Assembly (NCBI GenBank): GCA_047967505.1
Contig: CM106538.1
Origin: Dipteris shenzhenensis
Lineage: Eukaryota
DNA: 64,000 nucleotides
Reading direction: 5' to 3' (one strand)
This document shows, piece by piece, positions 14,089 through 64,000 of this stretch (its first letter is position 1; each line of letters begins with the position of its first letter). The translations under genes and the position numbers were made by a program. The notes below the pieces were generated by a model that saw nothing but the letters and a program-made list of their open reading frames with translations, made no database searches and was not told the DNA's origin.

Positions 14089-14665
14089 CGGCTGAGAGTG
14101 AGTATGAGAGAATTATGAACGATTGGTCTGGCTGCATCAAAAGTTTGCTCATGGCAACAATTGGTATTGAGCATCAAACAGCAACCTACGATCAGCAAGT
14201 TGTGTCCAGCTATGGCGGAGGCTTCATCCATTATTTGCAACTGGGAATCGTGTATTTTCTCACCGATTGACAATGTGGCTTGCTCAGTCATTGCTGGCAC
14301 ACACAGATGCTTCAATAGATGTTTAAATCACCATGGCGAAGGAAAAATGAATTTGATCATAGAAATTGATGGGGCGAGCAGCTTGAATTGTGAGATCGTA
14401 TACAGGACTCTCATTGACTCGCAATTCAAGCATCATCCCAAAATAATCCTCCCCAAATCTCGGTTAATTCTTTGGGGAAAGCTCCAAACTTACATTGGAT
14501 ATTGTAGCAGAATTCATTTTTGTTTTGTCTCTGGCTTGTTGTGGGAAAGTCTCAAGCACTTGCCATTGTCTTCTTAGTCCTCCCTCCTAAAATTGGAGAT
14601 GATGGGGGTGTGAAATCATGATTGAATGCCCTTAATTAACAAGGAAACTGTGTCAGGTGTGTGTA

Positions 14666-20495: not shown

Positions 20496-23400
20496 AATGA
20501 CATATTGTACTTACTTGAGAAATAGCATGGTAAAGCAATATCTACGAGGGTCGTAACTCTTGTGGTCCTCCCTTTACGTGCTTTTTTGTGGCAACTAAAG
20601 GAAAACTTAGGCAAGGAGGCATTGGGTATTAGCAAAGGAAAATCTTGGGTCTATCTAGCCGAAAACAAGTTTGGCCTACATCAAAGACCATAAACAGCTG
20701 AGAGTGAGTATGAGAGAATTATGAACAATAAGTCTGGCCTACGTCAAAGACCATAAACGGCTTGTGAAGATAGTGGGAGAGAGGAAAGGAGTCTCACTTG
20801 CGGCTTTCTCACATACACAATGGGGGAATACACACACAGGTGGAGGCTGAAAATAGTTTTCCTCTTCTTAGTTGTGAAAGCCAAAAAAGAACTCTAGTAT
20901 AAAGAAATAGAAGAACCCTATATGTGGGTCTCAAACCAAACTCAACTAACTAAGGTGGCATACTAACTGAGCCACGAACTAGAGTAGATAAGGATAGCTG
21001 TCATCCAGCTATTATTCGTGGGTGGTGTACCAACCGCATCTACAGCTAACAAGTCGGTGACATAAATGCACAACGATCACCCTGGCATATCGCGAGTGGA
21101 GCTCGATATCTCAACACTCCCCCTCGAGCTCAATCCCAATCCTTGCACACCATGGAGGTCTCTGAACTTGCGTAGCTTCTCTGTGCCCAATGCCTTCATG
21201 AATATGTCAGCTACTTGATCCTCTGTGCTGACATAAACTAGATCAATAAGACCTAGTAAAGCCTTCTCCTGCACATAGTGATAATGCACCTCAATGTGCT
21301 TTGTTCTAGCATGATAGACTGGGTTATTTGCCAAGTGTATACTACTCATGTTGTCACAATAAATGACAACTGGCCCATCTGTAGACTTGCTAGAGGACAC
21401 TGTAGGTCCACTGATATTTTGTGACTGTTGCATTGAGTTCTGTGCAACATTACCATTTTGTGCATCTACATCAATCATCACATTTACTGGTTTATACCAG
21501 CTGCTCATCTCATAAAAAACAACATCTCTGCTCAATGTAAACTTACGAGTAGAAGGGCTATAGCATCTATACCCTTTCTGTTGAGAGAATAACCAATAAA
21601 GATGCACTTCTCAGCTTTTAGATCCAACTTGGACCCCAACTCATCTGGCACATGAACATAGGCAATGCAACAAAAAATTTTCAAATGAGAAATGTCTGGT
21701 TTCCTACTAGTATACATCTCCTCTGGTGTCATGCCATGTATTGCTGCAGTGGGAGTCCTGTTCATTATGTAAACTGTTGTAGCCATTGCTTCAGCCCAAT
21801 AATAATTTGGTAGATCTTTCTCATTTAGCATGGCCCGAGATACCTCTCCAATATGCCTGTTTTTCCTTTCTGCAAGTCCATTTTGCTGTGGGGTATGACT
21901 GCATGAATATTGCTGCTTTATGCCATGCTCCTGCAAGAACCTTGCAAACTCATTTGAGAGATACTCTCCCCCTCCATCTGACCTTAGGCATTTTATTTGC
22001 ATGCCTGTTTCTTTTTCAACCATAGCTTTAAAAGCTTTGAAGTGCCCAAACACTTCACTTTTATTTTTCATAAAATACACCCAAACTTTTCTGCTGAAGT
22101 CATCAATAAAAGTGACAAAATAGTGGCAGCCTCCAATAGATGCAGCTTTAGTAGTCCACACATCAAAGTGGATTAATTTCAATGGCTTTTTACTCTCTTG
22201 AACATGCCTAGGAAATGGTTTCCTTGCCTGTTTTCCAAACTAACAGGCTTCACAAACCTTATGCATTTCTACAACCTTGAATTTTTGCAATCCTGCAACA
22301 ATATTTTGGGCTTGCATTGATTTAAGTCGCTATATATTAACATGACCAATGCGTTTATGCCAGATGTCAATATCTGCAACTACACCGGTCCCATGTGCAA
22401 ACATTGTTGCACTCAATTCAGGCATGCCCGCATCCAACGTAAACATCCTACCTTTCTTCTTTCCTTTTGCTATCAAAAGCGACCGTTATCTTTCATATCG
22501 TCAACAAAGCATCAATGAGGATTAAATCTGACCTGCAAGCCCTGTTCAACCATTTGACCAATAGAAACCAGGTTCTTAGTGATGTTCGGGACATGAAATA
22601 CATCAGACAGGTATTTCTTTTTCCCATCCTACATAGACAAAGGAATTTTACCAATCTGCACAATAGGATGTGCAGTATCATCACCAGTCTCCACAAATCC
22701 TGGTTTTTCCATTTTCCTTGCATCTTGCATCCATTCTGCATGACCTGTCATGTGGTTTGATGCACCTGAGTCAACATACCACACATCATTTCGTTCTTCT
22801 GCACTTGTCACAGAATTGGTCATATGCTGCACCATAAATAGATGCTCATTTCTATCATTACCCTATCTACTAGAAGATGCATAATTGCCTTGCTGCAATT
22901 TTCCATTCATGATGTCATTCTACTTTTTGTAGCAGTCCTTAGGCATATGACCCATTTTACCACAGTAGTAGCATTCAACATTGTTGCTTGCATTTTGGCC
23001 TCTCTGCCATCCACCACGGCCTCTTTGGCTCCCCCTGCCTCTAAAGTTACCATGTCCTCCTCCATAGGATTGGTTTTCTTGAGTTTGCTACATATTCTGA
23101 TTTCTACCACGGCCTGTAGATCGGCCTCCTCTACCTCTGCCTCTACCTCTTCCAGCATTTGAGTAGAAGACAGTTTCTTTTGAAGTTCCTCCTGAAGAAG
23201 ATGCACCCCCATTTCTCTGCTCTTCAGAAATTAGAAGAGCAAACAACTCTTCAAAGTCAGGAAATTTTTCACGGACGGCAAGGATGTCCAGAACTGTGTG
23301 CATAATCCTTTCCTAGACCATTCAAGGTCATAGAAACTAGATCATCATCTTCCACTGGCAACCCAATGGAAGCAAGTGCATAATCCTTTCCTAGACCATT

Positions 23401-24955
23401 CAAGGTCATAGAAACTAGATCATCATCTTCCACTGGCAACCCAATGGAAGCAAGTGCATCTGCAATTTTCTTCACCTTCATGTGGTAGTCATTGATGCTC
23501 AAATTTTCTCTCTGCACATTATGCAACTCCTGTTTGAGCTGCATTTTCTTGGCTTGCGTATTTGTGCTGTACATTTTTGCCAAAGTATCCCATGCCTCCT
23601 TTGGCGTACTTGCATCCTGAATATGCACAATCATAGAATCCGAAATATTGATAGACAGCCAGTACATAACTTTTCTGGCTCTCTCATGCCATCCTTTAAA
23701 TGCCTGCATTTCCTGTTGATTGCAAACATTAGGAAGAACTGGTTCTTCTTCATTTCCTATAATGAACTCCCAATAGCCTTTTCCTATAAGGAAATTCGTC
23801 ATTCTAAACTTCCATGCCTGAAAGTTATTCTTGTCAAGCTTTTCAGTGACAATCCGTGAAAGAGAATCAGACGCCATTACAAAACACTGCAAAATATTCT
23901 GTCACTGTGAAAAAACACAGGTTTTGCCTCACACGAGCAGATCTTCAAAACTGACGAAAGTGGTATTTGGCCACAAAGTCACTTCCTAGTGACGATTTTG
24001 CATCAACAGGCAACAAGCATGATTCTGCAACTCCCAATATCTTTGCACACAGGCATACGATGTGATTTCTATGGCAACTTTTCATCGACCAGCCGAGCAG
24101 TGGTCGCACAGCAAAAATAGGACCTTTTTGTGAGTGCCTGTGAAGAACTTTCGCCTTCAAAACGAGCCCCGAAATGGCCTCGAATCAGAAAAATAAAGTC
24201 ACCGAGGGCTTTGCCCATGCCCGCAGCATATACTACGCTCTTGCCACACCGTAAAGGGTGTCTCAATCTGAGACAATGCACTCTTGCACTTCTAGCTGTG
24301 CTACCTGCAGAGATTTGCTCCCAAACTCGAAATAGGAAAGCAACACTAGTCCTCTTACCAGGACACCGCGAACATGGTTTGCTTTCTTGAGCTCCTTACC
24401 ATGAATAAGGCTCTGATACCATGTGAAGATAGTGGGAGAGAGGGAAGGAGTCTCACTTGTGGCTTTCTCACATACACAATGGGGGAATACACACAGGTGG
24501 AGGCTGAAAACAGTTTTCCTCTTCTTAGTTGTGAAAGCCAAAAAAGAACTCTAGTACAAAGAAATAGAAGAACCCTATATGTGGGTCTCAAACCAAACTC
24601 AACTAACTAAGGTGGCATACTAATTGAGCCATGAACTAGAGTAGATAAGGATAGCTGTCATCTAGCTATTATTCGTGGGTGGTGTACCAACCACATCTGC
24701 AGCTAACAAGTCGGTGACATAAATGCACAACAGTCACCCTGGCATATCGCGAGTGGAGCTTGATATCTCAACACGGCTGAGAGTGAGTATGAGAGAATTA
24801 TGAACGATTGGTCTGGCTGCATCAAAAGTTTGCTCATGGCAACAATTGGTATTGAGCATCAAACAGCAACCTACGATCAGCAAGTTGTGTCCAGCTATGG
24901 CGGAGGCTTCATCCATTATTTGCAACTGGGAATCGTGTATTTTCTCACCGATTGA
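20496..24955 (+). pseudogene. Degenerate RecQ-like helicase remnant (copy 2)
   Basis: Duplicate of 9813-14270. Confidence 0.45.
20763..24773 (-). mobile_element. Ty1/copia element (family A), copy 2
   Basis: LTRs 20763-21116 and 24422-24773. Same CGGCT TSD, PBS and RT deletion as copy 1. Confidence 0.97.
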
Positions 24956-34118: not shown

Positions 34119-37100
34119 TTTATATTTTCCATTCAGGTCTATGGATTTCGGCTAAGGACTGATGAAACATCAATAGTGGAAAGGGTTGGTTGGTGAATAA
34201 GCATGTGTTGATTTGGATCCAATCCCAATACACGGATGAAGATGTAATAGATATGTTTGCATGCCAGGTAAGGTTTTTGACCCAACTCTCTTTTTTGAAA
34301 ATTTGGACATGTACATATGGGTTCAGTCTTGATGTGCACATTAGAAGACATCCGAGCCTTGTCAGACCCTGTTGTTCTTAAATGGAAAATACTATGATGA
34401 AGAAGCTCTACTGTCATTTCTCCCATGACAACAGCATGCGTAGATTGAGCACTAGCTATTCTTTTTGCAGCCTCCTTAGATATGCCATGCCTCCATTTTG
34501 TGGTTCTTACCAATGTGTGTTGAGCTAGATTCCTTGGTATGGATGCCGACCCTCCATGTGCATCACAAAAATTAGTTGGCATTGGTGCCGATCCTTGAGG
34601 TACATTTGGTGTCCTCCAATTCATATGGGCTTAACCCACTATTTGCAGTCTAAAACTAGCCTTGATGAGATTGCCTATCTCCTCACTTGTGATGTTTGTT
34701 TCCACATCCACCTTCCACATAGATGGACGTTTAGAAACATGCATGATATTATGATCTAGGTGCCATGTATGAGTTACATCATCATTACAAAGCCACATCC
34801 ATTGTGCTTTTGGTCCTCCTACCCTTGGATGCCACCGTTCAGAGTAGAAACAGGGTGCCACCACTCCTTGTGAACTGCTTTGTATATATCGATTACACTT
34901 AACCTTTCCATCTATGAATCCAAGACACTTCACTTTAGAGTTTTTGGAGGTCCTTCGAATTGGCCAAAAAGTACGATGGATAGGCACCTCAATAATAGAG
35001 AGGCCACTAGGAAGGCATCCTTGTCTCATAGGTGGAGCCGTTGGGGCTTCTCTCTTGTGGGCATGGTCTCATTCTGAGATCCTTCAGCTTCCCCTACAGT
35101 GCCATGTTTTCCCCATGATGTTCTTATAGACTCCCTTTGAACTCCACCTTGCTCCATTGTGGAATCCCTAACATCCATTGGTTGGGTATTACCTTGCGGT
35201 TTTATTGAATGCCAATCTCCACCTTCTGTCTCGAACCTAATTTTTCTCGGCCGCCCTCTTTGCTTACGATCTCTAGTCTCCATCACATACCCTATCTTAT
35301 GTGAGGTGTTTTCTAAATGTATACTTGATGACTTGCTTCTCTTTCTTTGGACTGTTACCTTATCCCCATGTAATGGTCTTGGTTCTTCACACATTGGTGT
35401 CCTTGCAACTGTTTCATGCACCATTTGTGCAACTTGTGTTGGTGAAGGTGTACTCCTTGAGGTCACTCTTTGCATCAAGGCTTCCAAGTTAGGACCATCC
35501 CCAACATGCCTGCCAATCATATATGCATACTGTTTGGCACTTTGTAATAGGGCATTTGCCATGTCCGAAATGCAACAATCATATAATTGTATCTTTGTCT
35601 TAACCCTTCTCCTGCTAGCCAACTACCATGCATGCTTTCAGCTAGATTTGACCTTGGAGTGTGTGCCTCCTCCAAGGAACTCTTTGTTACGTGTGGTAAA
35701 AAAGGAGGTAATTAGAATTGGCTTATTACATTTATTTCGCTTACTACATTTATCTACAAAATACATACTGCGCTCATGAGATTCCCCCAATGGGCAATCT
35801 GCACATCCCACCAACTAAACCATATGTCCATTGAAGGAATGTCAGCCTCACGGACATGTCTTGCATGCCACCAATATTGAATGAGCTTTGCTTGCTTGGT
35901 AGCTTCTTGCTTTGTCTTACATAATCTCCAATTCTTACACATGGTGATATGCTCATTCCTCATATCCTCTTTGAAGAATTTCTTTGTGTGCTTATGCAAG
36001 CTTTGTTCCCAATGGAAGAGACATGAGCACTCAATCCCAACAATTATATTGTTTGGACCCCCATTGAAAATAGTTCTCATAGCTATCGACTTCACTCTAG
36101 CTTCATCAGACATGAAACCATGAAAATCTGCAAGGGGATACCCACATTGTTTCATTGTGGCATTCAACATCTCCCAAAATAGGATTTGGCTTTCAGCATC
36201 TTCATCTTTCATCTCACATGTGATGATGGTCATTAATTCCTGCACACTAGTAGACAAAGCCAACATTATTAAATATTATACAACTCTCTTGATGATAGCA
36301 ACATGGATACATAAGGATGGAGGGAAGTTATACCTAGGATCATAAACATGACATGCCATTGTGCTCCACCCATGCAAAGAGCATCACTAATCGCATGATG
36401 CCCTACATACATAGGTTCATCAAGGAGCTCATCATCGCTCACTCAATGGGTGTGATCAAATTGTACTCATGAATTCCTCAAATCACCATTTCCTCCTCTT
36501 CTCATGCGATTGACAAGATCCACACCAGATGCGGGACCATTGGTTGACATTTTAAAAACAAAACATTTTTCATCTAGCAAGCCTTGCCTTGGAAAACGAC
36601 TTCCATGGGAGAATGAATACATCGACCTTTTCTTTAGTAAAAGAAGGTTGTCATAGCCTTCCCCAATAGGTAACCTTGCCTTCTTCTCTTGTGCAACAAT
36701 CCATTTGAACTCTGAATGTCAACATCAGTCCTCGACTTATAAGAATTGTGGTACATACCAGGCTTCTCAATGGGACTTAACTCTTCAAGATCCACATAAT
36801 GAGATGGTTGAGAGGTTTTCTTTCCTTCTTTGCCAAACTCTTTGGAGTAAACTCTACTAGCAACATAATGCGATGAACGAGGCTCTTCAAGATCACTAAT
36901 AGTACTTGCTGCCATGATTGTATTGTGGATGGGAGCATACCTTTTTATCAAGGAGGCATCCAGTACGTAATGCTCTTGACCATCAATATCCCACTCAAAT
37001 GAAACCTTTACCTTCATTGTTGCTTCACCTTCAATAACTACCTTAAGGCAGATGAGCTTATGTGTATGGGGAAGAAGGCTTTGAAGGAAATGCGCACTAA

Positions 37101-37248
37101 CAATCCTTCTTCCATCCTTGAGCAGGATAGAGCGTGATAGATTCACTCCTTCAATAAGCCATTCAATAGAAGCCTCTTCTGTAGCCATTATGGATGACAC
37201 AACAAAAGGTACCAAAGACAGACATATGTTAAGCCTTGCTTCAGTCAA
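34119..37248 (-). pseudogene. Degenerate MULE-type DDE transposase gene with C-terminal SWIM zinc finger
   Basis: FVFKMSTNGPASGVDLV..QFDH and WSTMACHVYDP (36335-36570); FHGFMSDEA..CSCLFHWEQSL (35754-36266); SWIM CTCPNF..ACKHIYYIF (34120-34341). Stops, frameshifts and probable introns. Confidence 0.8.
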
Positions 37249-38111
37249 ACTGGTTATTAGTGGAGCTCAGAGAATATAGACAATCTTGAGAGCAGAGGGA
37301 TGGTAATCCAACATGGCATTGAGAGCAGAAGGATGATGAGGGATGATAACCCAACACGGATCATGAAAATAAGAAGGGATGAAAGAGAGAAATGCAATGT
37401 GATGCAAAGCTAGAAGGCAACCAAAGAGACTTAGAAAGTAATGGTGGGAGAGAATGAAGAGGAGAAAAGGACAAGAGAGTAGTATGAGGATGCGAGGTAT
37501 GTGGTCACGAGAAAGTAGAGTACAAATATTGCAAAGCTGGAATGATGGTGAGAAAGGTGGCAGTCGAGATTCTTTCAAAAACTTGGATTATGCCAGGATG
37601 CCACAATCTTAAGCCATAAAAGCAACATGCTATTATAGGGACGTGGATTATGCCTTGCCGCCACAATCTGACAATCTATAAAAAGCTTTGATCAACTCAA
37701 CGGAATTATCCTTCAGCATATTACCATGAAACACCAACTAGTTATTAACAAACCAAATGACAAATAGAACCACTGCCCTTGAGCCATTGAGCAAGCTTAT
37801 CTCTCAAAGGCAAGCAGTTTTGCAAGATCTTCCATATCAAAAATTTAATTTCCCCGGCAGCAACGAATACCACATCGCTCCACACCTACGTTTCGCAATC
37901 GGCCAACCCCACCAAATACCACCTTATCCTTCGCCCCCTCTCTTGGCTCTCTCCTCCCTCTCTCCTCCCTCCTTCGACCCCTCTCTCGGCTCTCTCCTCC
38001 CTCCTTCCACGTTTCCACCTCCTCCTCCTTAGCACTCACATAGCTGATCCCCCCCCCTTTTTTCGGTTTCATAGATGCCAGAGATCGCACTATCACGTGA
38101 TCTATTTGGGG

Positions 38112-40051: not shown

Positions 40052-40890
40052 TGTGAAGAGAGTGGGAGAGAAGGAAGGAGTCTCACTTGCGGCTTTCTTA
40101 CATACATAATGGGGGAATACACACAAAGGTGGAGGCTGAAATAGCTTTCCTCTTCTTAGTTGTGAAAGCCAAAAGAACTCTAAGTACAAAGGAATAGATG
40201 AACCCTATATGTGGGTCTCAAACCAAACTCAGCTAACTAAGGTGGCATACTAACTGAGCCACGAACTAGAGTACATAAAGATAACTGTCATCCAACTATT
40301 ATTCATGGGCGGTGTACCAACCGCATCTGCAGCTAGCAAGTCGATGACATAAATGCACAACGGTCACCCTGGCATATCACGAGTGGAGCTCGATATCTCA
40401 ACACTCCCCCTCGAGCTCAATCCCAATTCCTGCACACCAAGCACGTCTCTGAACTTGCGCAGCTTCTCTGTGCCCAATGTCTTCGTGAATATGTCAACTG
40501 CCTGATCCTCTATGCTGATATAAACTAGATCAATAAGACCTAGTAAAACCTTCTTCCGCACATAGTGGTAATGCACCTCAATGTGCTTTGTTCTAGCATG
40601 ATAGAGTGGGTTATTTGCCAAGTGTATACTGCTCATGTTGTCACAATAAATGACAATTGGCCCATCTCTAGACTAATGCATATCATAAAGTAGCTTATGC
40701 AACCAAGCTACCTCACATGTAGCCATTGCTGCACCCTTGTACTCAGCCTATGTGCTCGACAAGGAAACTGTAGGCTGTTTCTTGCCACTCCAAGTGATTG
40801 CAACACTCCCAAAAGAGAACACATATCCACTGGTAGATCGTCTATCAGAAATACTACCAGCCCAATCAGCATCAGTGTATCCATGCAACA
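40052..40890 (-). mobile_element. Copia family A fragment: 3' LTR, PPT and full RNase H region
   Basis: LTR 40052-40403 is homologous to 10080-10433. RH reads [31 protein letters not shown]. Truncated at ~40890. Confidence 0.93.
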
Positions 40891-41290
40891 GCGAGATATG
40901 ATCTCTTGGAGTGCCATGATTGCTGCGTGTGCCCATAAAGGGCATGGCAAAGAATCTCTATAACTGTTTGGCCAAATGCAGGTTGAAGGTCTTGTGCCAA
41001 ACAAGATCACCTTTATCTGCATTGTGGATGCTTGTGCTTGTATGACATCCCTAAAAGAGGGTCGTGTGACCCATGCTACTATTGCTGGCAATGGATGGGA
41101 GTCAGATGTTATTGTGGGGAATGCCCTTGTCTATATGTATTGCAAGTGTGTGAACCTAAATGATGCAAGGGCAGTGTTCACAGAGATGTCATAGTGGAAT
41201 GTGGTCTCCTAAAGTGACATAAGTGCTGGTTCTGCTCAGAATGGGCATGGCAAGGCAACCTTGCAACTGTTCAGTGGAATGCAAGTGAAA
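40883..41290 (+). pseudogene. PLS-class pentatricopeptide repeat (PPR) gene fragment
   Basis: [68 protein letters not shown] shows P-L-S motif order with several stops. Confidence 0.9.
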
Positions 41291-41632
41291 AAAAGTCTCT
41301 TGATCTCTTTATTTATTGATAGTGCACTGTGTGGATGGGAATTCTCTTCATGTTGGTTTTCTATTTCTCCTCATTTCCTCCCAATCTAAGCCGTGATACC
41401 TTCATTTTGATTTGAAAGAAAGGTTTTTCCAAATTCCATGCACACATTATTGTACACACATAGTATTGCATGAGGATCCTTCCATTACTTCATAAGCCTT
41501 ACTTTACAAAGTTGTCATGTCAGGTTCATTCATATCCATAAGCAAGGCCCTCTCTCTCTAGGTGACATCAGGAGATGTCAGCCTCTAACACCCCCTCTCA
41601 GCTCCTGGATGGAATAAAGACGCTAGGGAGAT

Positions 41633-41725
41633 GGGTGAATGAAAAGCTCGCAATATTCATAAAAATTGAAAAAAAGCTCGTGACAAAAAGATCACCAAAA
41701 AATCACACCCCCTTCTACTCGGGAA
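41633..41725 (+). mobile_element. MULE-like terminal fragment related to the end at 33590-33682
   Basis: AAAAGCTCG-type repeats are colinear with the reverse complement of 33610-33682, and both regions contain CCTTCTACTCGGGAA. Confidence 0.5.
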
Positions 41726-42988
41726 GTAGCAAGCTAAGGGTGTCCACTTTTTGTTCACTCCCCAATCCTTAGGAGGTGGAAAAACAAGCTTTTTAGCACA
41801 CAAAAATGCAAATCTCACCTACTTCCCTATGGATCTAGTCTTTGAAGTCTTCTGACACAACATCACACTTGCTATTGTGCACACAATCATATAGTTTGAT
41901 CGAAAATTCGATGCACACACAAAAAATTTCTTTGTGTCACACGGCATGGTTCTAGGGTGGTCACACGTTTGTCACGAACAGAGAGTGTCATATTAAATTC
42001 TAAATTTCTCACTCATTTTAGATCAAATGTTATTGAAACTTTGTAAGTGGTCTCTTTGCATTATGTAGAGCTTAACTTGATTTATTGGTAATTTTTTGAA
42101 TGATTTATCTAATTATAAATAATTATTTATAATAAATAAAGTCATAAAATACATGCATTTTAGTAGCACACCACATTTTTTTAGTATTTTGAATAATTAA
42201 GCAAATCCAATTCAGTGGAAGGTTAGTAGGCACATAAGGGTGTGTGGTTGAATCATCAAATCCCAAATCCAACGGTTAGATTTAGGAAGATTGAAGTTTA
42301 ATTTTTACTTTTACTCCTTAGAGCATCAACAAAGAATATTAAAAATAAATCTAGTAATTCCCAAACATAACCAAACATTTCAAAAATGTCAATATTTTTA
42401 GTCCTCTGCATGATGAATAAGAGGAAAAAATTTTGGTTAAATTTGAGTAAGGGAAACATACGATATGGCCTCCAACAGTTAAATCTCCCTTTTGTGGGGG
42501 AAAAAGGGCCACCCAAGCCTAATACCAAGACAAGGTAGGCTTGGTATTAGGCTTGGTGAGGTAGGCTAGGAGCATCACCGACCCTAGTGGCAAGCCTTTG
42601 GAGTCTGCATGCTGCCCATGTGGAAGGCTGAGTCATCAAAACCATGCCATGTTGTTAGACCACGTGGTGCCATCTCATCAAGGAGATGTGACATCACTCC
42701 TTGCCATGTCACCTTACATTGCCACACGTGCTGCCACATGTGCCACCTCATCATTCCACATCATGAGCCATGTGATCACACAATGCCACCTTGGCATACC
42801 TCCTCAACCTTGCCACATCACCAATCCCTCCACCTCAATTTGCCATGTCAATCTACCACCTCATGAATGCCAACTCATCATGCCACATCACCTTTCAATG
42901 TCATGGAAGAGACTATATTACCACATCATGACCATGCATGGTGCCACATCAGCCACATGTATACAAATGACGATGTGCAAGGCATACA

Positions 42989-43143
42989 ATACCTCGATCG
43001 AGGTATATGACCGAGGACACCTAGGGATACCTCGATCGAGGTTTATACATGCGTAATGCACTGAATACCTCGATCGAGGTATATGGTCTGTGATCGAGGT
43101 ATATGATCAGGGCTCTAGGCATAGTAGACCTCGATCGAGGTAT
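42989..43143. repeat. Left array of palindrome ATACCTCGATCGAGGTAT (4 copies plus half-sites)
   Basis: Copies at 42989, 43027, 43065 and 43128. Confidence 0.95.
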
Positions 43144-43287
43144 TTGAAGGTACAAAACTTAGCCAATTAGTATCAATCTTAGCACCAAAACTTAGCCAAT
43201 TAGTTTCAATCTTAGCACCTCTCCACCAATAATAATGAAGAGCAATCTAAGAGCAATCTAGTGGATGAGTTGAGGCTCTCTATAATC

Positions 43288-44014
43288 ACTACTAGCATGA
43301 CTACGTATGAAAAATGGCACACATACTAATGAAATATGCACGTGGACTTATTTGTTGGGGATGAAACTTCACATGGCTCTTAGGCTACCCTGGACGTACA
43401 TCCACGCAAGATTTGGTCTCCAACTGATTTGGTATGCGCCACATGGAAGGACAAATGCATACATTTTTACAATCCCTACTAGCACGACTACGTGTGAAAA
43501 ATGGCGCATGTACTAACGAAATATGCATGTGGACTTATCTGTTGGAGATTAAACTTTGCACGGCTCTTAGGCTGCTGTAGACGTACATCCACGCAAGATT
43601 TGGTCTCCAACTGATTTGGTATGCACCACGTGGAAGGACAACTGTGTACATTTTTACAATCCCTACTAGCATGACTATGTATGAAAAATGGCACACATAC
43701 TAATGAAATATGCACGTGGACTTATCTGTTGGGGATGAAACTTCACACGGCTCTTAGGCTACCCTGGACGTACATCCATGCAAGATTTGGTCTCCAACTG
43801 ATTTGGTATGCGCCACGTGGAAGGACAAATGCATACATTTTTACAATCCCTACTAGCATGACTACGTGTGAAAAATGGCGCACGTACTAACGAAATATGC
43901 ATGTGGACTTATCTGTTGGAGATTAAACTTTGCACGGCTCTTAGGCTACCGTAGACATACATCCACACAAGATTTGGTCTCCAACTGATTTAGTATGCGC
44001 CACGTGGAAGGACA
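43288..44014. repeat. 187-bp tandem repeat x ~4, arranged as 374-bp dimers
   Basis: CTACTAGCA(T/C)GACTA anchors at ~43288, 43475, 43662 and 43849. Units 1/3 and 2/4 share diagnostic variants. Confidence 0.93.
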
Positions 44015-44314
44015 TTCTTTTTTCAATACCTTATGTATTAGATGTGTGAATTGAGATATTCGAAATTCAAAATCATACTCCTAATTTTAAATGTTTATGT
44101 TACATTTAAACAAACTATAAACTGAGATAAACTGAGATAAACAAAGTGTGAAGAACATCATGAAAGTACGAAAATGCTCATACATCATAAAAGTGGGAAC
44201 AATATCATGAAAGTACCACATCATGCTACAGAAGCGCATCCCTATACAAGAAACGTGTGAATAGCCGTGCATCTGCGAATACTCGTGCCTCAAATCTAGC
44301 GTGAGTAATCGTCT

Positions 44315-45965
44315 CTACATGTAGAAGACGCTGGTCCGCCCTAGCTGCTGCTCCACCCACTGCTGCAATGATGTTTGTAGCTCTGCCTCTCGCTCAATCC
44401 GGCATGCCTCCTCTGCTCGTGCCTCGTCACCTGGCATGAAATCACCATACGAAAAGCGTCGTGGAATGCATGCTGCAACCACTGATGTATCAGCACCCTC
44501 CTGCATCAGCAACGCTCTTTGTGCCTCCTCCCTATAGTGCTCTGTCAAGACTACACAGGCGAATGGATCAATGGTGTGATGATGACCAGGATATAGATTA
44601 TCCATGCCTAGTCCTCTGTATGTGGCCACATCAATGTCAGCAAAGCATACAGGGCACACTGATCGTGCCACCATGTGGCGGGTCATGCAATGGAGATGTG
44701 CGATGTGGCTGCACCCTAGTCCAAACCACCCTACAGTGTCAAACTCCTCGTGGCAAAGGACGCAAGTGGTAGTAGGAAGCCTAGCTATGACTGCTGCGTC
44801 TATGGGTGTCCTAGTCGGCACATCTACAGGGGAGGAGCGGGGTATAGGGCCACGCTGGGGTCGATCCTATGGCGAGATGGATCACGACTAATATGCCTCA
44901 ACTGCAAAATATAGTGCTCTGCATGATGGTATGCTATGCGTGTCCGAATCCTCTGCTCCTCCAAATCTGTCTGCAACAGTCGTATGCGAGACTCCATCTC
45001 CTGACGCAATAGATGTGCCTGCAATGCAAACATGTCGCGTACATGGTGAGAATTAACCAAAAAACTTTAGTTCAAAACACGCTACAAAAAAATAAACTAA
45101 CATAATCAAAATAACTAACCTCATCCCTAGACTCGGCCAACAATGCCTCCAACTCTGCAATCCGTGTGTCTCGAGCCTCCAACTCGTGCTGAGGTGGTGT
45201 AGATGTGGGAGGTGGTGTAGATGTGGGAGGCTCCATCGATGATCGAGGTGGGGGAGGTGGAATCGCAATAGATCTCGATAGGGCAGAGACCATGTGCTGC
45301 AAGGATGATGCCACTGAATGAACATCCCCCCTAATCTATCCTCCCACCGCTCGTAATAAAGGTGCAGGGATGGTGTGCAACTCAGGTGCCTCGTGTCGAC
45401 GTCGAACACCTACAATCTGATGCTCCTGACGCCCCGTCCTACCATGTCCCGCTTCTGATCTTGGACGGGTACTAAGGTAGTCCACCCGATGACCAAAACT
45501 CAGCGTATAGTTGCATGGCAAACGACCTGGCTATCCGACGGTTGTGAGGCAATCGACCACCATTCGCAGCGAGATATCTCGGATAAATGTGTGCTGCTAT
45601 GATGGGGTGCCTACAACGTAAAATATGCAAGGGGAGCCCTGATCGTGGTCGCATCGCCTCGGTGTGATCATCCCAAAACATATCCTCTAAGGCCTGCCTG
45701 TGATGTGACTCACGCTCAAACAACTGTCGAATGGCTCTCCAATCCAAGCCACCACCAGTGATCTCTGCCTCAGCCTATGCCTGAAAGCTATCCACAATGT
45801 CCTCAACTGTGTCCAATCGACCCAGAGCCTCAATAACTGATGAATCTAGACTCGCAACCAAGTGAGGGGGTGCCCTAGCATCCTGCAGTGCCCTCATCTC
45901 AGCTCTTAGCATCTCTATCTGCATACGAATAGTGGTGCTAGAACCTGTGCACTGGCTGGCGCATG
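44315..45965 (-). pseudogene. Spliced gene: unknown N-terminal domain, Pro-rich linker, coiled coil, RING-H2 finger; disrupted
   Basis: CVLC-x13-CSHIAHLHC-x10-CPVC is a C3H2C3 RING. A GT..AG intron at 45119-45019 joins ..LLAESRDE to AHLLRQEM.. in frame. There is a frameshift at ~44824-44867 and stops further upstream. Confidence 0.8.
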
Positions 45966-46899
45966 CACAAAAAAAACACATGGAAATTAATATTCTATTT
46001 GGGTAATGAAAATAATATTCTATTCAATATGACTTATAATCTATTTACGTAATGAAAACTATTTGTACGTACTCCTTGATGAGGTAGGATGTCGTTGGGA
46101 TCATCCTATGCACCTACCGGTAGATGGGCCAAATGTGTGGCTCAATATTATTAAAAATTCTTAATTTTGATTAGAATTTTTTCAAACTCTAGTTGTTGCA
46201 TTTTTAAACTTAGATGTCTCAAATATTTTTTCCTTATATGTTTCCCTTTTTTCACTTTTTATCCAATATGAAACTTTTCCACATGTGGTGTAAGGACCAC
46301 ATTGTCCACTTATGGCCCCTATACTAAGGACAGATAGTGGAGAGGTTTGGTTAATAAGACCTTCTTTGAATGCTTTACTGGCTTGGGTTTGCAATAGATA
46401 CGGAGGAGATAGAAGGATACCTAATACATTACTTTGAACGATACGCAAGCAAGGCGCATCTAGTATTTCTCAGACTACACATTAAAAAAGAGAGCGGGTT
46501 CACACTACAGACCTTTTAAAGTGAAAACTTTGAGAAAATAATTAAGCCTTTTCAATATTATCTATTTTGGTTGGGCAATCCACCTCAACTAGTGGCCATT
46601 CCTATAGATCATCACTTGGTTCCCATGCTTGGGGAGAGAGGAGACCTTTGGACAATCATAAATTACGTATGTGTTTTCGATGCGCTGGTGCATTTACAAG
46701 ATCCAATTAGCGATATGCTTATGCATCTAACCACTCTAGTGTTGGGGTCTTTGCCCATGTGGTGTGGTGTTTTAGGGATAATGCCCATGTGGTGTTTTAT
46801 ACAGCCTACTTACTCTACCTAAATTATGAAACAACTCTTAACCAACTATATAATCTATAATATTTCACATAAACGATGATTTTTTAAAAGATGGTTTTA

Positions 46900-48410
46900 A
46901 AGACTAAAATTTAAACATTTTTTTATTTAAATAAAAATAGCACCAATTTCAAAGATAGCATAGAAGCTACTTTAATCTCTCTTTTTCTTGTTCTTGTTTT
47001 CTTGTTTTTAATACATGATTTTCTTATTTTAACAAAATTCTTATTTTCTTGTTCTTGATACATGATTTCTAAAAACAAAATTTAAACGTTATATTAAATT
47101 CAAAACTTCAGTAATTTGTAAACTTCACTTATAAATTTTTTTAATAGATTATTTTAAAAAACAAATTATATACTTTTTGACATTTAAATACAAACTTCAC
47201 TAACTTAAACTCTTATTTTCTTTTTTTTATAAGATCATTTTTAAAAATAAAATTTAAACGTTTTTTTATTTAAATATAAATAACACTAATAAAAAAATAT
47301 CTTTAATCTCTTTTTTTTAAAAGATGATTTCAAAAAACAAAATATATACATTTTCAGGCTTTAAATAAAAAATTACATAATTCCAAAAATAATTTAAAAA
47401 ACTTTAAAATGCATTTCAAATTTAGAAATATTTTATAATTATTCCTATAAACTAAAATTTAAACGTTTCTTTATTTAAATAAAAATAGCACTAATTTAAA
47501 AAATAACTTTAATCTCTTTTTCTTTAAAGATGATTTTAAAAACAAAATATTTACATTTTCACATTTTAAATAAATAATTACGTAAATAATTTAAAAAAAC
47601 TTTAAAATGCATTTCAATTTTAAAAATATTTTATAATTATTCCTATAAACTAAGATTTAAACGTTTTTTATTTCAATAAAAATAGCTCTAATTTAAAAAA
47701 ATAACTTTAATCTCTTTTTTTCCAAAGATGATTTTTAAAAACCTAATTTTTACATTTTCACATTTTAAATAAAAATTTAAAATGCATTTGAAATTTGAAA
47801 TATTTTATAATTATTCCTATGAACTAAAATTTAAACGTTTTTTTAAAAAATAACTTAAATCATGATTTTAAAAAACAACATTTTTACATTTTCACATTTT
47901 GAATTAAAAATGTCGTAATTCAAAAATTTAAAAAAAACTTTTAAATGCATTTCAAATTTAAAAATATTTTATAATTATTCCTGTGAACTAAAATTTAAAC
48001 ATTTTTTTATTTAATTAAAAATAGCTCTAATTAAAAAAATAACTTTAATCTCTTTTTTTTCAAAGATGATTTTAAAAAACAGAATTTTTACATTTTCACA
48101 TTTTGAATAAAAAATGCCTTATTAAACGTTTTTTAAATTTAAAATTTTCACATTTTAAATTATAAATGTCGTAATTCAAAAATTTAAAAAAATTTACAAA
48201 TGCATTTCAAATTTATAAATATTTTATAATTATTCCTATGAACGTTTTTTTATTTAATAAAAATAGCTCTATTAATTTTTTTTTTCATTTTCACATTTTA
48301 AATAAAAAATGTCGTAATTCATAAATTTCAGAAAAACATTAAAATGCATTTGAAATTTAGAAATTTTTTATAATTTTTCTTATAAACTAAAATTTCATTA
48401 AATTTTACCA
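46900..48410. repeat. Extremely AT-rich degenerate tandem repeat (~165-200-bp units)
   Basis: Recurrent AAATGCATTTCAAATTT..TATAATTATTCCTAT(A/G)AACTAAAATTTAAACG blocks. Confidence 0.85.
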
Positions 48411-48550
48411 AAAAGAAAATGCTACATAAAAAAAACCCTACTTGGACTCTCCTGCTCCGTCCATCTCCGTCGATGTCCGTCGGTCACTCTCCGTCGCTCA
48501 CGCAATTCCGTCGACGTCCCGCAAATCCAAAATCGGTGGATGAGGAGGAG

Positions 48551-49207
48551 CTCGATCGAGGTATGCGGAATGAGGGGGGTCGCTCTCCTTTTATAAGAAA
48601 AATTAGGGTTTCTCTACCTCGATCGAGGTATTCCGCATGCATGCCACGATACCTCGATCGAGGTATTGTGACATGCCCATATATCTCGGTACATCTATCT
48701 CGATCGAGGTATTGACATGCCATGATACCTCGATCGAGGTATCATGACATGCCCATACATCTGGGTACATCCACGTCGATGGAGGTATTGACATGCCACG
48801 ATACCTCGATCGAGGTATTGTGACATGCCCATACATCTTGGTACATCTACCTCGATCGAGGTATTTACATGCCACGATACCTCGATCGAGGTATGTCGGC
48901 AGCAACCGGATGCCAAGTCATCGGTCCAGCATACCTCGATCGAGGTATGTCATCTGTCCTGTCGACTGCCCTGTCGGATGGCACATACCTCGATCGAGGT
49001 ATGCTGGACATGCCACCTTACCTCGATCGAGGTTGAGTTGGATTGCCAGGATACCTCGAATGAGGTAGATGTGGCATGTATAGGTGGCTTGCCAACAAAC
49101 CTCGATCGAGGTAGAGGCTCGGTCCGGTGAAAAAAGCCCAGCACCTCGATCGAGGTATTGGCTTGGCTCGGTTGTCCTCATTGGAGCTAATACCTCGATC
49201 GAGGTAT
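48551..49207. repeat. Right array of palindrome ATACCTCGATCGAGGTAT (~16 copies)
   Basis: Counted by eye. A 76-bp period is seen at 48649, 48725, 48801 and 48877, with irregular spacers beyond. Confidence 0.95.
48586..48610 (-). promoter_or_regulatory. Candidate core promoter of the RING gene
   Basis: Minus strand AAACCCTAA (telo-box) then CTTATAAAAAGG, upstream of a CpG-rich exon-like block ending in CAA/GTAGG at ~48441. Confidence 0.45.
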
Positions 49208-50489
49208 TGGAGACCGAAGCAAAACCTTTGTATTTTCACTCGAGCGGGTGTCACACTCACCCGAAAGTGGACACCCTTAGCTTGCTACCACCCACTCATT
49301 TTTTGTCAGCATTCAATTGAGCTTGATCACTTTAGGGCACTGATTTCAAAGTTATTGCTCCACAAGCTTGGAGATGAACTATTCAAGGGCTCTACAACAT
49401 CTATTACTTGATTGCAAGCAAATTTGCTACCAGCTCAGGATCAACCCAAGTAGAACATTGTTACTCAAAAGGGAATGCTTGATCCCTTGGAAGTCCACTT
49501 GCTCAACTTTAAAAATATTGCAATCAAAGGTAGTAAATTGTAGTTGCTATTCTAAGCTTCTTGCACAAATAGAGAAGCTTAGACATTTTACTTTGAAAGC
49601 TATGGAGCTATAAAAGGTACTTTTTAATATCTACGATACCTCATTAAAAACGACATCTTCATACACCACATTTTCACATTGATATTGATCCTTTGTTCTC
49701 TCCATGTAAAGAAATAAAAGGCTAAGATGCTTTTGAAGCTAGACAATAATTTCATTACAATGTCTCACCACATTTGGTCCAATCTCTTAGATGATCTATC
49801 AAAACAACACAAAAAATTCCATAGAATAGTTTTTAAAAAGGGGGAGACAAAAGGTCTTGGGAAAAATAACTAAGGGTGAGTACCTAGATGGATACTATCT
49901 CCATCATACAAACCGGCCATCACGTAAATGGATTTCTTAAAGATCCTTGAGAGAGTCACACTATGTTTGATGGATTTGTGTTGGTTGTATGCAATATTTT
50001 TGCACCAATGTCCAAATTTTCTCTTCCATTCAAGGGCAAGATCTTGAAGCACAACCCTAATGAGCCATATGAATTCTTCTACTTTAAAATCAATGTGAAA
50101 ATATGAGATCCAAGTTTTTGGGATTGTGAATAAGTACTAGTGGTCCTTATAATTCCTAACTATGCCTTAAAGTGGACCTCATGGTTTATGGTGGTAGATC
50201 CCATAAAATCTCAAGGAAAAAAATCATTCGATAAATCTATATGCTCATAGTGGTGAGCCTCGTGTCCAGAGCAGGGTTAGTTAAATCCTAATGCACCATC
50301 CTATTGCAGGAGGGGGCCAAATCAAGCACATGAGTATGTGTGTGTTCATCACCATGGCTCTTATAATCCATCCCCCTTGAGGGATGCTTAATGATCTATA
50401 TACTAATTCTACAAGGTCATTTTACTTTTGTACTAGAGTACAAAACCAATTGTAGGGGGACAAAAGCAAGGGCACACATATGTGCATGC

Positions 50490-50890
50490 TTTAATATTCC
50501 CATCAGGAAATGGGCCATACAAGTAGTCCATCATTTGGATAAACATATTATGTATGAGAAAAGGACAAAAATATTTGACACAACTAAATTGAAAATTTTG
50601 ACAAATTTGTAACAAATTGAGATCTTTTCTTAATAAATAGTTTGCAAAAAATTCAAGAACCTTGAGAATTTTAATTAATATTTAGTTTGCAAAAAAAACC
50701 ACAAGATAGGTAAAAAGTGTCAAATCCATCAGGTACTCTAGGTTCCCAGGTCAGGGTCCACTTACTTGCCACCCTCCAAGTAAGCCATAACTTAGAATAA
50801 TATAGCTTAATTTGGGTAGATATGTAATGCATGTGTTACCTGGCTTGTAGTCACTTTACCTAGGAACAAGAACATCCCTCTAGATTCTTA
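50490..50890. repeat. Dispersed repeat, inverted copy of 30-410
   Basis: See feature 30-410. Confidence 0.8.
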
Positions 50891-59209: not shown

Positions 59210-60090
59210 GACGGAACACAACTTTTGCCTCACACGAGTAGATCTACAAAACTGACGAAAGTGGTATTTGACCACACAGTCACTTCCTAGTGATGATTTT
59301 GCATCAACAGGCAACAAGCATGATTCTTCAACTCCCAATATCTCTGCACACAAGCATACGATGCTATTTCTGCGGTAACTTTTCACCGACCAGCTGAGCA
59401 GTGGTCGCACACCAAAAAACAAGGCCTTTTTTCGAGTGCCTGCGAAGAACTTCCGCCTTCAAAATGGGCTCCAAAATGGCCTTGAATCAGAAAAATAAAG
59501 TCACTCAGGGCTTCACCCTAAGGGCTTCGCCCTGACCCGCAACATATACTGCGCTCTCACCACACCGCGAAGGGCGTCTCAATCTGAGACAGTGCACTCT
59601 TGCACTTTTGGCTGTGCTACCTGCAGAGATTTGCTCCCAAACTTGAAATAGGAAAGCAACACTGGTCCTCTTACCAGGACACCACGAACTTGGTTTGCTT
59701 TCTTGAGCTCCTTACCACGAACAAGGCTCTGATACCATGTGAAGATAGTGGGAGAGAGGGAAGGAGTCTCACTTGCAGCTTTCTCACATACACAATGGGG
59801 GAATACGCACAAAGGTGGAGGCTGAAAATAGTTTTCCTCTTCTTAGTTGTTGAAAGCCAAAAGAACTCAAGTACAAAGAAATAGAAGAACCCTATATGTG
59901 GATCTCAAACCAAACTCAACTAACTAAGGTGGCATACTAACTGAGCCACAAACTAGAGTAGATAAGGATAGTTGTCATCCAGCTATTATTCGCGGGCGGT
60001 GTACCAACCGCATCTGCAGCTAACAAGTCGGTGACATAAATGCACAACGGTCACCCTGGCATATCACGAGTGGAGCTCGATATCTCAACA
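59210..60090 (-). mobile_element. Copia family A 5' LTR, PBS and leader
   Basis: LTR 59738-60090; PBS 59726-59737; leader colinear with 13230-13736. Confidence 0.95.
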
Positions 60091-61772
60091 CCATTGCCAA
60101 CCCACGTTATAGCACCGGCTACTCTAGCAAAGCCTCTTTGTCTATAGCCAGGCTCGACAGCCATATCTAGCTCCTAACATGTGCCGCCTTACAGCTCCAT
60201 ATATGCTCCATATATGTAGCCTAGTCGCTTCCTCAGCCTGAGCGTCCACGAACTAGATTGCACTAGAGAACTGCACCAGAGCAGTAGCTCCAAAAGCAAA
60301 AAAAGAACCTATGCGAGCATTGACTTCACACACAACTCCTTCTCTAGCAACTCTCTGTCTCCACGCTTAGCCTCCTCCATCACCCACACCACCAAAACGC
60401 TGCTTCTCTGCTAGCCCGTGGCTCTAAACGGCACGTAAAGCTCTTTTGGGATAGTTTGGTAAAAGGCTACAAAACGGGTCTAAAGAAGTTGCACCAACTG
60501 TGAGCGCAAGATTTTGATCAAAACATCGATCATGTGTGGAAGTAGATATCATTGACAGTCAAAAGGACTTCATGATCGATAGAGCTTGTAGCAAGCGTGG
60601 TGTGTTTTGGGAGGAGGAGTGCTAGCTCAGCTACGCGGTTGGCAATGAATTACAATACAATTCTCTGTCGATGTTTCCTATAATATGCATACGATTCCGA
60701 GATCTGTTGAGGCAGATCCATTTTTCTAGGTACTTTTCCTGTAACCTCGATCGATGGCAGCTCCTGCAACAAATCAAGGATGCCTCCATGCTACAAACAC
60801 CCATGGTTGTCTTCCTCACGTCGCTTCTCATCTTCATGGACGTCGCCGCCATCACGCTCAGGCCTCAAAGATTTCTTCAAAGTCTTCATTGCTAAGGCTC
60901 CCACAAAAAGCCACGTGGTAGGATAAGGCTGAACTGTGGTTAAGTTAATCCAACCACATTTAACCTTGGTTAGTTGAGTGTGGTCATTGACTGCTGGTTA
61001 ACTTAACTTGGGTAGAATTAACCTTGGTCAGCAAGTAGATAGGGTTGGTCAAGCCAACCTCTGAAGGGTCAATTCACAATACCCATGATTAGGGGTAGGA
61101 TTAGTTAAGTGCCACCTAAGCACAGAGCCCCTTGTTAAGCACAATGTGAGTGCAGCATGTGAACAGCCTCTGCCACATCATCAAGGCCCCCTCTTCTTCA
61201 CAAAAACTTCGACAAGTTGTAACTTCTTGCAATCTAAGAGGAATTTGCACATGCTCCAAAAAGGAAAAGTGATCTCCTTTTCAAGCTCTACGTGCCTATC
61301 AAATAAGAATCATTGTTAGAAATTAGACACTGCCAATATTGAAAGAAATCAATTGGTAAGACCTTTGCAACAAATGACAAATCAAAGCATGAATGTACAC
61401 ATCATTGTCATAAGCATGCCAAAAGCACAAGTGCATGAGATGACCATAGCACGAAGCATGGCATCCACACATAAAGCATTAAGGCACATGGAAGAACAAA
61501 GCATCATGCATCAAGCTACGTCAAGAGAAGAAGAGAATGCCATCGACATCAAGCATTGAGAAGCAACATCCTTTCCACCTACAGCCCATATGTTTGTAAT
61601 CAAGCCTGACCACCTAAGAGTAGCTATGAAAGCACCCAGGGGAGGTATTAACATGTAAAAACCACACTTGACCACCTTAAGTAGCAATGCAAGCACTAAG
61701 GGGAGGTGATGGATTTGTAACTCACATCTGACCACCTTGCAATAGCCAAAGGATCATGGCACCAAGGGGAGG

Positions 61773-62264: not shown

Positions 62265-62343
62265 TTCTTCTTGATACTTTCTTCTCGTAAGTCCCTTTCA
62301 TTCTTTTCCTAAGTCAAATCTTATTTGTCGCTCTTGTAAGAAT

Positions 62344-64000
62344 TTGACCTCTCTCCCTCTCCTCCCTCTACTCCCTCACTTCTCTCTCCCTGACTCTCTC
62401 TCTCTCTCTCCCTCTACTCCCTCGCTTCTCTCTCCCTCACTCTCTCTCTCTCTCCCTCCCCTCCCTCCTCTCCCCTCTCTCTCCTTCTGCTCCCTCCTCT
62501 CCCCTCCCTCTCTCTTTCTCCCTCTCTCTCCCCTCCCTCCTCTCCCCTCTCTCTCCATTTGCTGCCCTCCCTCCCCTTCCTTCCTCCCCTCCCCTCCCCC
62601 CCTCCCTCGACCCCTCCATCCCCCCCACTCCCTCCCTCCCCTCCCCTCGTGGAGGGTGCTGACGGCCGCACCAGAACCCCCCCATTCCTCCCTCCCTCGC
62701 CCATGCCCCTGCCCCCCCTCCCCCTCCCTACCCGGCTCCCCTCCCCCCCTCCCCTCCCCTCCCCTCCCTCCCTCCGTCCCTCGACCCCGCCCCCGATCCC
62801 CTCCCCCCCCTCCGCCCCCCCTTCCCTACCCGGCTCCCCTCCCCCCCCTCCCCTCCCGCCCTCCTTGGGGGTCTGGTGGCCGCGGCCGCCAAAACCCCCC
62901 CTTCCCCGTCCCTCCCCTCCCCCCTCCAGGGGGTCCTGGCGGCCGCAGCCGCCAGACCCCCTCGGCCCCCTCCCTCCCCCACCCTCTCCCTCCCCTCCCC
63001 CCTCTAGGGGTCCTGGTGGCTACGGCCGCCAGACACCCCCTGCCCACTCCCTCCTCGGCTGCAACCCCCCCATCCCCTCCCCCCTCCAGGGGGTCTTGGC
63101 GGCTGCGGCCGCCAAACCCCCCCGCCCCCCTCCCTCCCTCGACCCCAACCTTCCCCCCACCCCCTCCCTCCCCTCTCCCCTCCAGGGGTCCTAGCGACCG
63201 CGGCCGCGAGACCCCCCCGCCCCCTCCCTCCCTTGACCCCAACCGCCCCCACCCCCTCCCCCCTCCAGGGGGTTCTAGCGGCCGTGGCCGCCAGACCCCC
63301 CCTGCCCCCTCCCTCCCTTGACCCCAACCCCTCCACCCCCTCCCCCCCCTCCCTCTAGGGGGTCCTGGCGGCCGCGGCCGCAAGACCCCCCCTGCCCCCT
63401 CCCTCCCTCGACCCTGCCCCCGCTCCCCTCCCCCCCCTTCGCCCCCCATCTTCCCTACCCGGCTCCCCTCCCCCCCCCTTCCCCTCCCCTCCCCCCCTCC
63501 TTGGGGGTCTGGCGGCCGTGGCCGCCAGAACCCCCCCCCACCCCGTCCCTCCCCTCCCCCCTCCAAGGGGTCTTGGCGGTCGCGGCTGCCAGACCCCCTC
63601 CCCGCCCTCCCTCCCTCGACCCCAACCCCCCCCACCCCCTCCCTCCCCTCCCCCCTCCAGGGGTCCTGGCGGCCACGGCCGCCAGACCCCCCCCTCCCTC
63701 CCTCGACCCCAACCCCCCCCACCCCCCTGGCGGTTGCAGCCGCCAGACCCCCCCCCTTCCCTCCCTCGACCCCAACCCCCCTCCACCCCCTCCCCTCCCC
63801 CCTCTAGGGTCCTGGCGGCTGTGGCCGCCAGACCCCCCCTCCCTCCCTCGACCCCAACCCCCCTCCAGGGATTCTGGCGGCCGCGGCCGCCAGATGCCCC
63901 CCCTCCCTCCCTCAACCCCAACCCCCCCCCCACCCCCTCCCTCCCCTCCCCCCTCCAGGGGTCTTGGCAGCTGCGGTCGCCAAACCCCCCCTCCCTCCCT
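62344..64000. repeat. C-rich satellite with GC palindrome core, running off the window
   Basis: A CT tract grades into ~15 units of GGGGTC(C)TGGCGGCCGCGGCCGCCAGACCCC separated by CCCTCCCTCGACCCCAACCC runs. Confidence 0.92.

Follow-up and report, generated by a model that had tools for sequence, protein, structure and literature searches.

What is a segment of plant DNA that begins and ends with a perfect inverted repeat, carries arrays of palindromes, two satellites and part of a RING-H2 gene, and holds no recognisable transposase? This question is raised by positions 41726-49288 of a 64,000-nucleotide stretch of the Dipteris shenzhenensis genome (assembly GCA_047967505.1, contig CM106538.1), the whole of which is referred to here as the window. 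We interpret the segment, 7,563 bp long between the outer ends of its terminal inverted repeats (TIRs), as a non-autonomous class II (cut-and-paste, TIR) DNA transposon with a mosaic interior, in which the RING fragment is dead cargo, a reading to which we assign a probability of about two in three (0.68). One feature by which membership of this class is judged, a repeated unit whose borders are formed by TIRs, is present. Evidence on other copies comes from the contigs of four coded public runs, X1-X4, aligned to the window; depths are sums over contigs and the kind of run is only guessed ('DNA?'), and no absence is read from gaps in the cover of a run, such as that of X4 over 46178-46845. 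Small-share matches from air metagenomes are left out of account. The ends of the element are the following:

41726..41750, plus strand: left TIR, 25 bp, perfect, from the repeat search; X4 contigs begin matching at 41726/41727.
49264..49288, minus strand: right TIR, 25 bp, perfect, from the repeat search; X4 depth goes from 90.9 to 0 past the end.
41717..41725, no strand: candidate TIR extension GGGAA (3/5 complementary) with ACTC before it, a candidate and unproven 4-bp target-site duplication (TSD).
49289..49297, no strand: mirror of the left candidate extension, CACCC and then ACTC, from the boundary-offset scan.

The 25-bp sequence GTAGCAAGCTAAGGGTGTCCACTTT is found at 41726-41750 (+) and 49264-49288 (-), its only two matches in the 64-kb window at up to three mismatches, and none of 100 shuffles gave any, which bears out the perfect inverted termini described in an earlier note on this DNA. 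Four listed contig pieces of X4 begin at 41726, 41727, 41728 and 41735, and two of its records (24 and 25) match inward from 41726/41727, their 64 and 429 further letters being unlike the flank of the window. Summed depth in X4 is 7.49 in 41168-41501 and then 403.5, 272.6, 242.4 and 179.4 across 41502-42837; at the other boundary, the final bin of the element (49184-49517) has 90.9, and the next (49518-49851) and all beyond it have 0. Because contigs break where the left TIR starts and depth drops sharply beyond either end, the termini bound a repeated family, which is present at other loci in a related genome as far as the contigs show. These contig breaks and the drop in depth, together with the lack of a transposase domain, uphold the proposal that the segment belongs to a repeated TIR family as one of its non-autonomous members. 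Were the segment not mobile, the 25-bp pair would merely bracket a patch of satellites and other repeats produced by local rearrangement, and the failure to see a TSD, a transposase or a second full copy would be accounted for; an inverted match at 25 of 25 positions is not expected by chance, however, the terminal base is exactly where contigs of another run cease to be homologous, and depth falls away past each terminus; we regard immobility as very improbable.

The inverted-repeat search stretches the TIR pair to 30 nt at 93% complementarity (28/30), that is, to 41721-41750 and 49264-49293. Inverted likeness beyond these 30 nt is not significant, the score being reached by 21 of 500 shuffles with 60-nt flanks and by 84 of 500 with 120-nt flanks, and longer TIRs, suggested by an apparent outward extension (CAAAAAAT...), were rejected as not above shuffles. 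That X4 contigs stop at 41726/41727 and not at 41721 argues mildly against the 30-nt version, two mismatches being enough to stop a local alignment there anyway. As had been claimed, the interior lacks a DDE motif: none of the 57 stop-to-stop open reading frames (ORFs) of at least 50 aa in the element matches a transposase or DDE family in Pfam. No Rfam family and no tRNA was found within 41000-50000. A 22-mer of the TIR had no match in the genome-contig collection or in the viral-contig collection, the papers listed by a full-text search with the TIR and palindrome strings were all unrelated primer or chance matches, and the plasmid collection, which is ill-suited to plant DNA, gave no match to the gene region. 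No description of such a RING-carrying TIR element was found among the papers listed by a search of the open-access literature.

Between the TIRs lie the arms of the element, with their palindrome arrays:

41751..42590, no strand: left arm, with no ORF, no homologue and no Pfam match.
42990..43142, no strand: left array, four copies of TACCTCGATCGAGGTA; X3 contigs show variants with extra units.
48548..49206, no strand: right array, 15 palindrome copies, with extreme hairpin potential.

The 16-bp palindrome TACCTCGATCGAGGTA has 19 matches at up to two mismatches, 11 of them exact, where 0.00 are expected. Every one of the 19 falls within the element, with four at 42990-43142 and the other 15 at 48548-49206, and so do all 18 occurrences in the window of its 10-nt core, CTCGATCGAG. 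A 76-bp tandem unit is repeated 3.6 times at 48613-48894, within the right array, and the right arm (48600-49288), taken as single-stranded DNA, folds at -196.5 kcal/mol compared with -93.55 for shuffles (z = -20.1). In X4, the family is most abundant in its left arm. The palindrome arrays announced for both ends are both found inside the element, and the description holds for the right one; the left one is not terminal. A metagenome scan for two palindromes 14-44 nt apart returned one contig, of 5518 nt (L001), which was set aside as unrelated, a hairpin being the only common feature; this contig is GC-rich, has long ORFs and a bacterial look by eye, and its opening hairpin contains the 14-nt palindrome core twice.

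The gene region of the element reads as follows:

44259..45018, minus strand: exon 2 of a coiled-coil/RING-H2 pseudogene, with P0002/P0037 homology in three frames and frameshifts near 44829 and 44335.
45019..45119, minus strand: putative phase-0 GT-AG intron of 101 nt, from a reading of the sequence only.
45120..45930, minus strand: exon-1-like region, in one frame if the 5-nt indel of most X3 depth is allowed.

The RING-H2 ORF (44315-44866, minus strand) matches zf-RING_2 with an E value of 7.2e-6 and 26.6 bits, just below the Pfam cutoff of 27.3, and all eight metal ligands are in place when the ORF is read by eye. In tblastn, homology to the relatives P0002 and P0037 is split over frames -3, -2 and -1, from 45030 down to 44259. 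Upstream, the 101-nt GT-AG intron would plausibly join the exons in phase 0; the exon-1-like region contains in-frame TAG stops at 45775-45777 and 45336-45338, and had no relatives in the homology searches run. Contigs of the other runs have two fewer bases at 44829 (2.4 of 2.4 depth in X2, 11.1 of 11.1 in X3 and 6.1 of 9.1 in X4), seven extra bases behind 44335 (43 of 46.4 depth in X3) and five extra bases behind 45495 (40.9 of 58.3 depth in X3). With the changes at 44829 and 44335, exon 2 is open over 281 aa and aligns end-to-end with residues 38-300 of P0002 (E 5e-40), its longest open frame being 183 aa when unchanged; with the change at 45495, exon 1 is a single frame of 303 codons with the two TAG stops. 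Other copies thus lack the three frameshifts of the window copy in all or most of their contig depth at these sites, and the window copy itself is dead, a pseudogene with three frameshifts and two in-frame stops. As to the spliced coiled-coil/RING gene reported before, the RING-H2 ORF stands and the intron is plausible, but the gene is broken, not intact. One X3 contig, moreover, leaves the window at 44261 and continues with 164 nt of other sequence, and the homologues extend about 90 residues past the point that matches 44261. Given this departure and the greater length of the homologues, we read the window copy, on the basis of that one contig, as having undergone truncation or rearrangement at the 3' end. 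Differences from copy to copy are mostly transitions (in X4, 83 C>T and 64 G>A, compared with 12-18 for each transversion), and in the nearest relative, P0001, Tyr replaces several of the zinc-binding Cys residues (read by eye); the two observations fit what is expected of methylated, decaying repeats.

Is the broken gene cargo, or does it belong to the family that the TIRs define? In X3, depth is 46-77 over the RING region, compared with about 4 over the left arm and 1-2 at the right end; in X4, it is 7-26 over the RING region, compared with 180-400 over the left arm. Since the RING module and the left arm vary about 10-fold in opposite directions, they are taken to be different repeat families joined in the window copy, an argument that fails if X3, whose kind is guessed, is RNA. 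The RING fragment is therefore better explained as part of a different high-copy repeat, acquired by capture or nesting, than as a retained accessory gene. The latter had been the proposal of the earlier note, and it finds no support in view of the three frameshifts and two stops, the departure at 44261 and the decoupled copy number. In its fullest form, it would make the element an internal-deletion derivative of an autonomous, undescribed TIR lineage, in which the RING-H2 gene accompanied the transposase as an accessory gene, was retained and has now decayed. Several observations are in line with such a history: the RING gene is multicopy (up to eight X3 contigs at one site), most of the contig depth preserves its reading frame at each of the three indel sites, the protein family is conserved and has kept motifs outside the RING, the eight relatives listed with sources are unannotated, as is common for genes in repeats, and it has an intron and so is not a retrocopy. 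Against it, there is a difference in depth of about 10-fold between RING module and terminal arm, in opposite senses in X3 and X4, and at least one other copy departs at 44261; also, a search for extended or fused versions of the RING protein gave none (weak evidence), and no transposase is seen near any family member, the contigs of the relatives not being part of the material. On balance, we think it unlikely that the RING gene was an accessory gene of this lineage.

The dependence of the copy-number argument on the kind of run is one of several points that weigh against the reading of a mobile element with acquired cargo. Capture cannot be told apart from nesting followed by deletion by the present evidence, and neither the window nor the run contigs showed a further full-length copy, an empty site or an autonomous partner. 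No direct repeat of length 3-12 flanks the 25-bp boundaries in the offset scan, which agrees with the earlier statement that there is no TSD, and a young element with perfect TIRs should still carry one. On the left, 1.24 kb lie between the TIR and the array, compared with 57 nt between the end of the right array and the right TIR, and the two ends share nothing past 25-30 bp. The missing TSD despite perfect TIRs would be explained if the segment were a recombinant or composite, its two ends deriving from different insertions of the same family and having been joined by ectopic recombination or deletion. The strongly asymmetric arms and the multicopy nature of the family go well with such an origin, which is a sub-case compatible with the reading that we favour; since no inner TIR copies or remnants occur (the two matches at up to three mismatches being the only ones), we consider it an improbable origin.

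A TSD was looked for by scanning 16 x 16 boundary offsets (256 pairs), and the flanks and termini were compared with the signatures expected of the superfamilies. Among the 256 offset pairs, the only exact direct match of at least 4 bp is ACTC at offsets 5/5, about one such match being expected by chance. ACTC sits exactly outside the 30-nt, 28/30 version of the TIR, and as a 4-bp TSD it is suggestive, of note only because it coincides with the GGG/CCC extension. hAT elements have an 8-bp TSD and a short YARNG-type TIR; the boundaries in the window read TCGGGAA(G) and CACCCAC(T), with no 8-bp match, and the nearest 8-mers, CACCCCCT and CACCCACT, differ by one mismatch, need an asymmetric 12-nt offset and lie in C-rich sequence. 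CACTA/En-Spm elements end in CACTA or CACTG and make a 3-bp TSD, whereas the termini here are GTAGC...GCTAC and offset 0 gives GAA and CAC. PIF/Harbinger elements have a 3-bp TSD, TWA, and neither boundary is flanked by TTA or TAA at offsets 0 or 5; Tc1/mariner elements duplicate TA, and the flanks are AA and CA. Mutator elements and Mutator-like elements (MULEs) have a TSD of 9-11 bp, and no 9-11-mer with up to two mismatches, including for a short-TIR MULE, is found at symmetric offsets. The sole weak match of this type in the 256 offsets is an asymmetric 9-mer with two mismatches, at offset 11/0 only, and the suggestion that a short-TIR MULE is the leading alternative finds no support. Foldback elements have long terminal inverted repeats, made of subrepeat arrays, that reach the termini; here, the inverted likeness of left and right amounts to 25-30 nt plus the palindrome itself, and 1.24 kb separate the left array from its terminus. 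The element thus fits the criteria of no named superfamily, and the assertion that its termini are unlike those of CACTA, hAT and Harbinger elements holds good. A bolder interpretation would assign it to none of the five usual superfamilies but to a separate lineage of plant TIR elements, in which the TSD is 4 bp long or lacking and the palindromes bind a dimer, and would give that lineage a genuine transposon-borne E3-ligase-like gene that is open in many copies. We hold this to be quite improbable; if true, the E3-like gene could, for example, counter host silencing or regulate the element itself.

The RING protein belongs to a family of its own. Searched exhaustively with HMMER, it has 36 relatives at E <= 1e-3, seven of them at <= 1e-10, which have in common a long N-terminal helix, a RIAYFRAEH-like motif, the RING-H2 domain, a YRxWGIDDL motif and a conserved C-terminal region. 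Four relatives (P0004, P0005, P0007 and P0018) pass the Pfam cutoff for the RING with 31.9-35.6 bits; domains other than the RING are a KIX domain in P0004 and sub-threshold bZIP-like matches in two others. The conserved motifs that flank the RING match no Pfam family, and all eight relatives listed with sources come from unannotated Logan/ENA assemblies. Longer or fused forms of the family were not found by the alignment search, which is weak evidence on this point, and an Atlas search returned generic RING clusters only, at scores below 0.9. By extrapolation, intact copies of the gene may reach about 650 aa, with an N-terminal region, a coiled coil and the RING-H2 domain. The ligand pattern of RING-H2 proteins of the RNF165/Arkadia, RNF38 and EL5 type, C-x2-C...C-x-H-x2-H-x2-C...C-x2-C, is also that of the window family, and the RING part of a P0002 model superposes on RNF165 (5ulh_C; TM by target 0.85, rmsd 1.7, 51 columns), as well as on RNF38. 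Foldseek with this model, whose mean pLDDT is 64.7, returned generic RING domains only, none at E <= 0.001. Unlike the named RING-H2 ligases, the family has conserved motifs beside the RING that are without a Pfam family.

Among known systems, two resemble the element in part. Pack-TYPE elements (Pack-MULE, Pack-CACTA) are non-autonomous plant TIR elements with captured gene fragments (PMC8903248, PMC6379663). Like them, the window element is non-autonomous, is bounded by TIRs, is without a transposase and has in its interior an intron-bearing gene fragment, here disabled by frameshifts and stops. In contrast to them, it has no MULE or CACTA signature and no TSD, its cargo is high-copy and not demonstrably a single-copy host gene, and no parental host locus was identified for the cargo within the window and the run contigs. 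The other system is En/Spm (CACTA), in which short TIRs are accompanied by subterminal arrays of short repeats, direct and inverted, that are bound by the element's DNA-binding protein. The window element likewise has short TIRs and many subterminal inverted dimers, in the form of the perfect 16-bp palindrome, and is a non-autonomous element of several kilobases; unlike En/Spm, its termini begin GTAGC..., there is no 3-bp TSD, and the left array lies 1.24 kb inside the terminus. A possible mode of action can be sketched along these lines. An autonomous relative, itself unseen, would provide in trans a transposase that recognises the 25-bp termini, and the same protein would probably bind in dimeric form to the many subterminal copies of the 16-bp palindrome. 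Between its ends, the element is a mosaic of independently repeated modules (left arm, 187-bp satellite, AT-rich satellite and RING gene fragment), to which the truncated and frameshifted RING fragment may have been added as cargo, by capture or by nesting.

The remaining modules of the interior are these:

42590..42970, plus strand: degenerate TGCCAC / GCCACATCA-rich block, from a motif count.
43284..44014, no strand: 187-bp satellite, 3.9 copies, from the tandem-repeat search, 88% matches.
46850..48400, no strand: AT-rich satellite, periods 86-198 bp; TRF rows span 47136-48113.

The stretch earlier described as rich in GCCACATCA is present, but it is loose: the exact 9-mer occurs only three times in the block, and TGCCAC occurs seven times on the plus strand at 42720-42942. 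Just before it, at 42503-42565, there is a short hairpin-like stretch (AAGCCTAATACCAAG ... CTTGGTATTAGGCTT) with a 12-nt tandem repeat, and three X4 contigs skip 81 nt across this stretch, from 42455 to 42537. Both satellites named in the earlier note were recovered by the tandem-repeat search. The 187-bp satellite can alternatively be described as a 374-bp unit in 2.0 copies with 96% matches (a higher order), and it is abundant in both runs, depth over 43172-43839 being 87.5-116 in X3 and 101.6-273.3 in X4. The AT-rich satellite falls in a region of low GC content (0.243 at 46001-48000, the window being at about 0.40); its cover in X1 and X2 was given no weight, as it consists only of contigs that run into unlike sequence (share 0.98 in X1). 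A repeat of about 370 bp, 73% identical between its copies, flanks the region at 38-406 and 50490-50887 (inverted), and the element itself contains a 127-bp fragment of this repeat, at 46140-46266.

The window as a whole is rich in repeats, and its other long ORFs carry copia and gypsy gag, protease, integrase, RT and RNase H domains. A repeat resembling a long terminal repeat (LTR), 91-93% identical between copies, occurs at 10080-10704, 13737-14089, 20763-21387, 24422-24774, 40052-40674 and 59738-60091. It adjoins copia-type gag/integrase ORFs, and one copia element seems to be present twice, as the ORF sets at 10394-13216 and 21077-23901; over the copy at 40500-40833 summed X4 depth is about 394,000, and the family is therefore of very high copy number. 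Elsewhere, four ORFs of 173-212 aa on both strands at 35026-37266 match no Pfam family at E <= 0.001, and from 62300 to 64000, the end of the window, there is a CT/CCCT low-complexity block (GC 0.684, GC skew -0.59) with long spurious ORFs in several frames.

As a non-autonomous DNA transposon that is so far unclassified, the element adds one more to those already recorded, which is useful for repeat annotation and not surprising. Neither its termini nor its flanks match any of the five superfamilies that are standard among plant TIR elements. Its cargo comes from a high-copy coiled-coil/RING-H2 family with conserved motifs, many other copies of which appear to keep an open frame, and an E3-ligase-like gene amplified by transposons would, if functional, be unusual.

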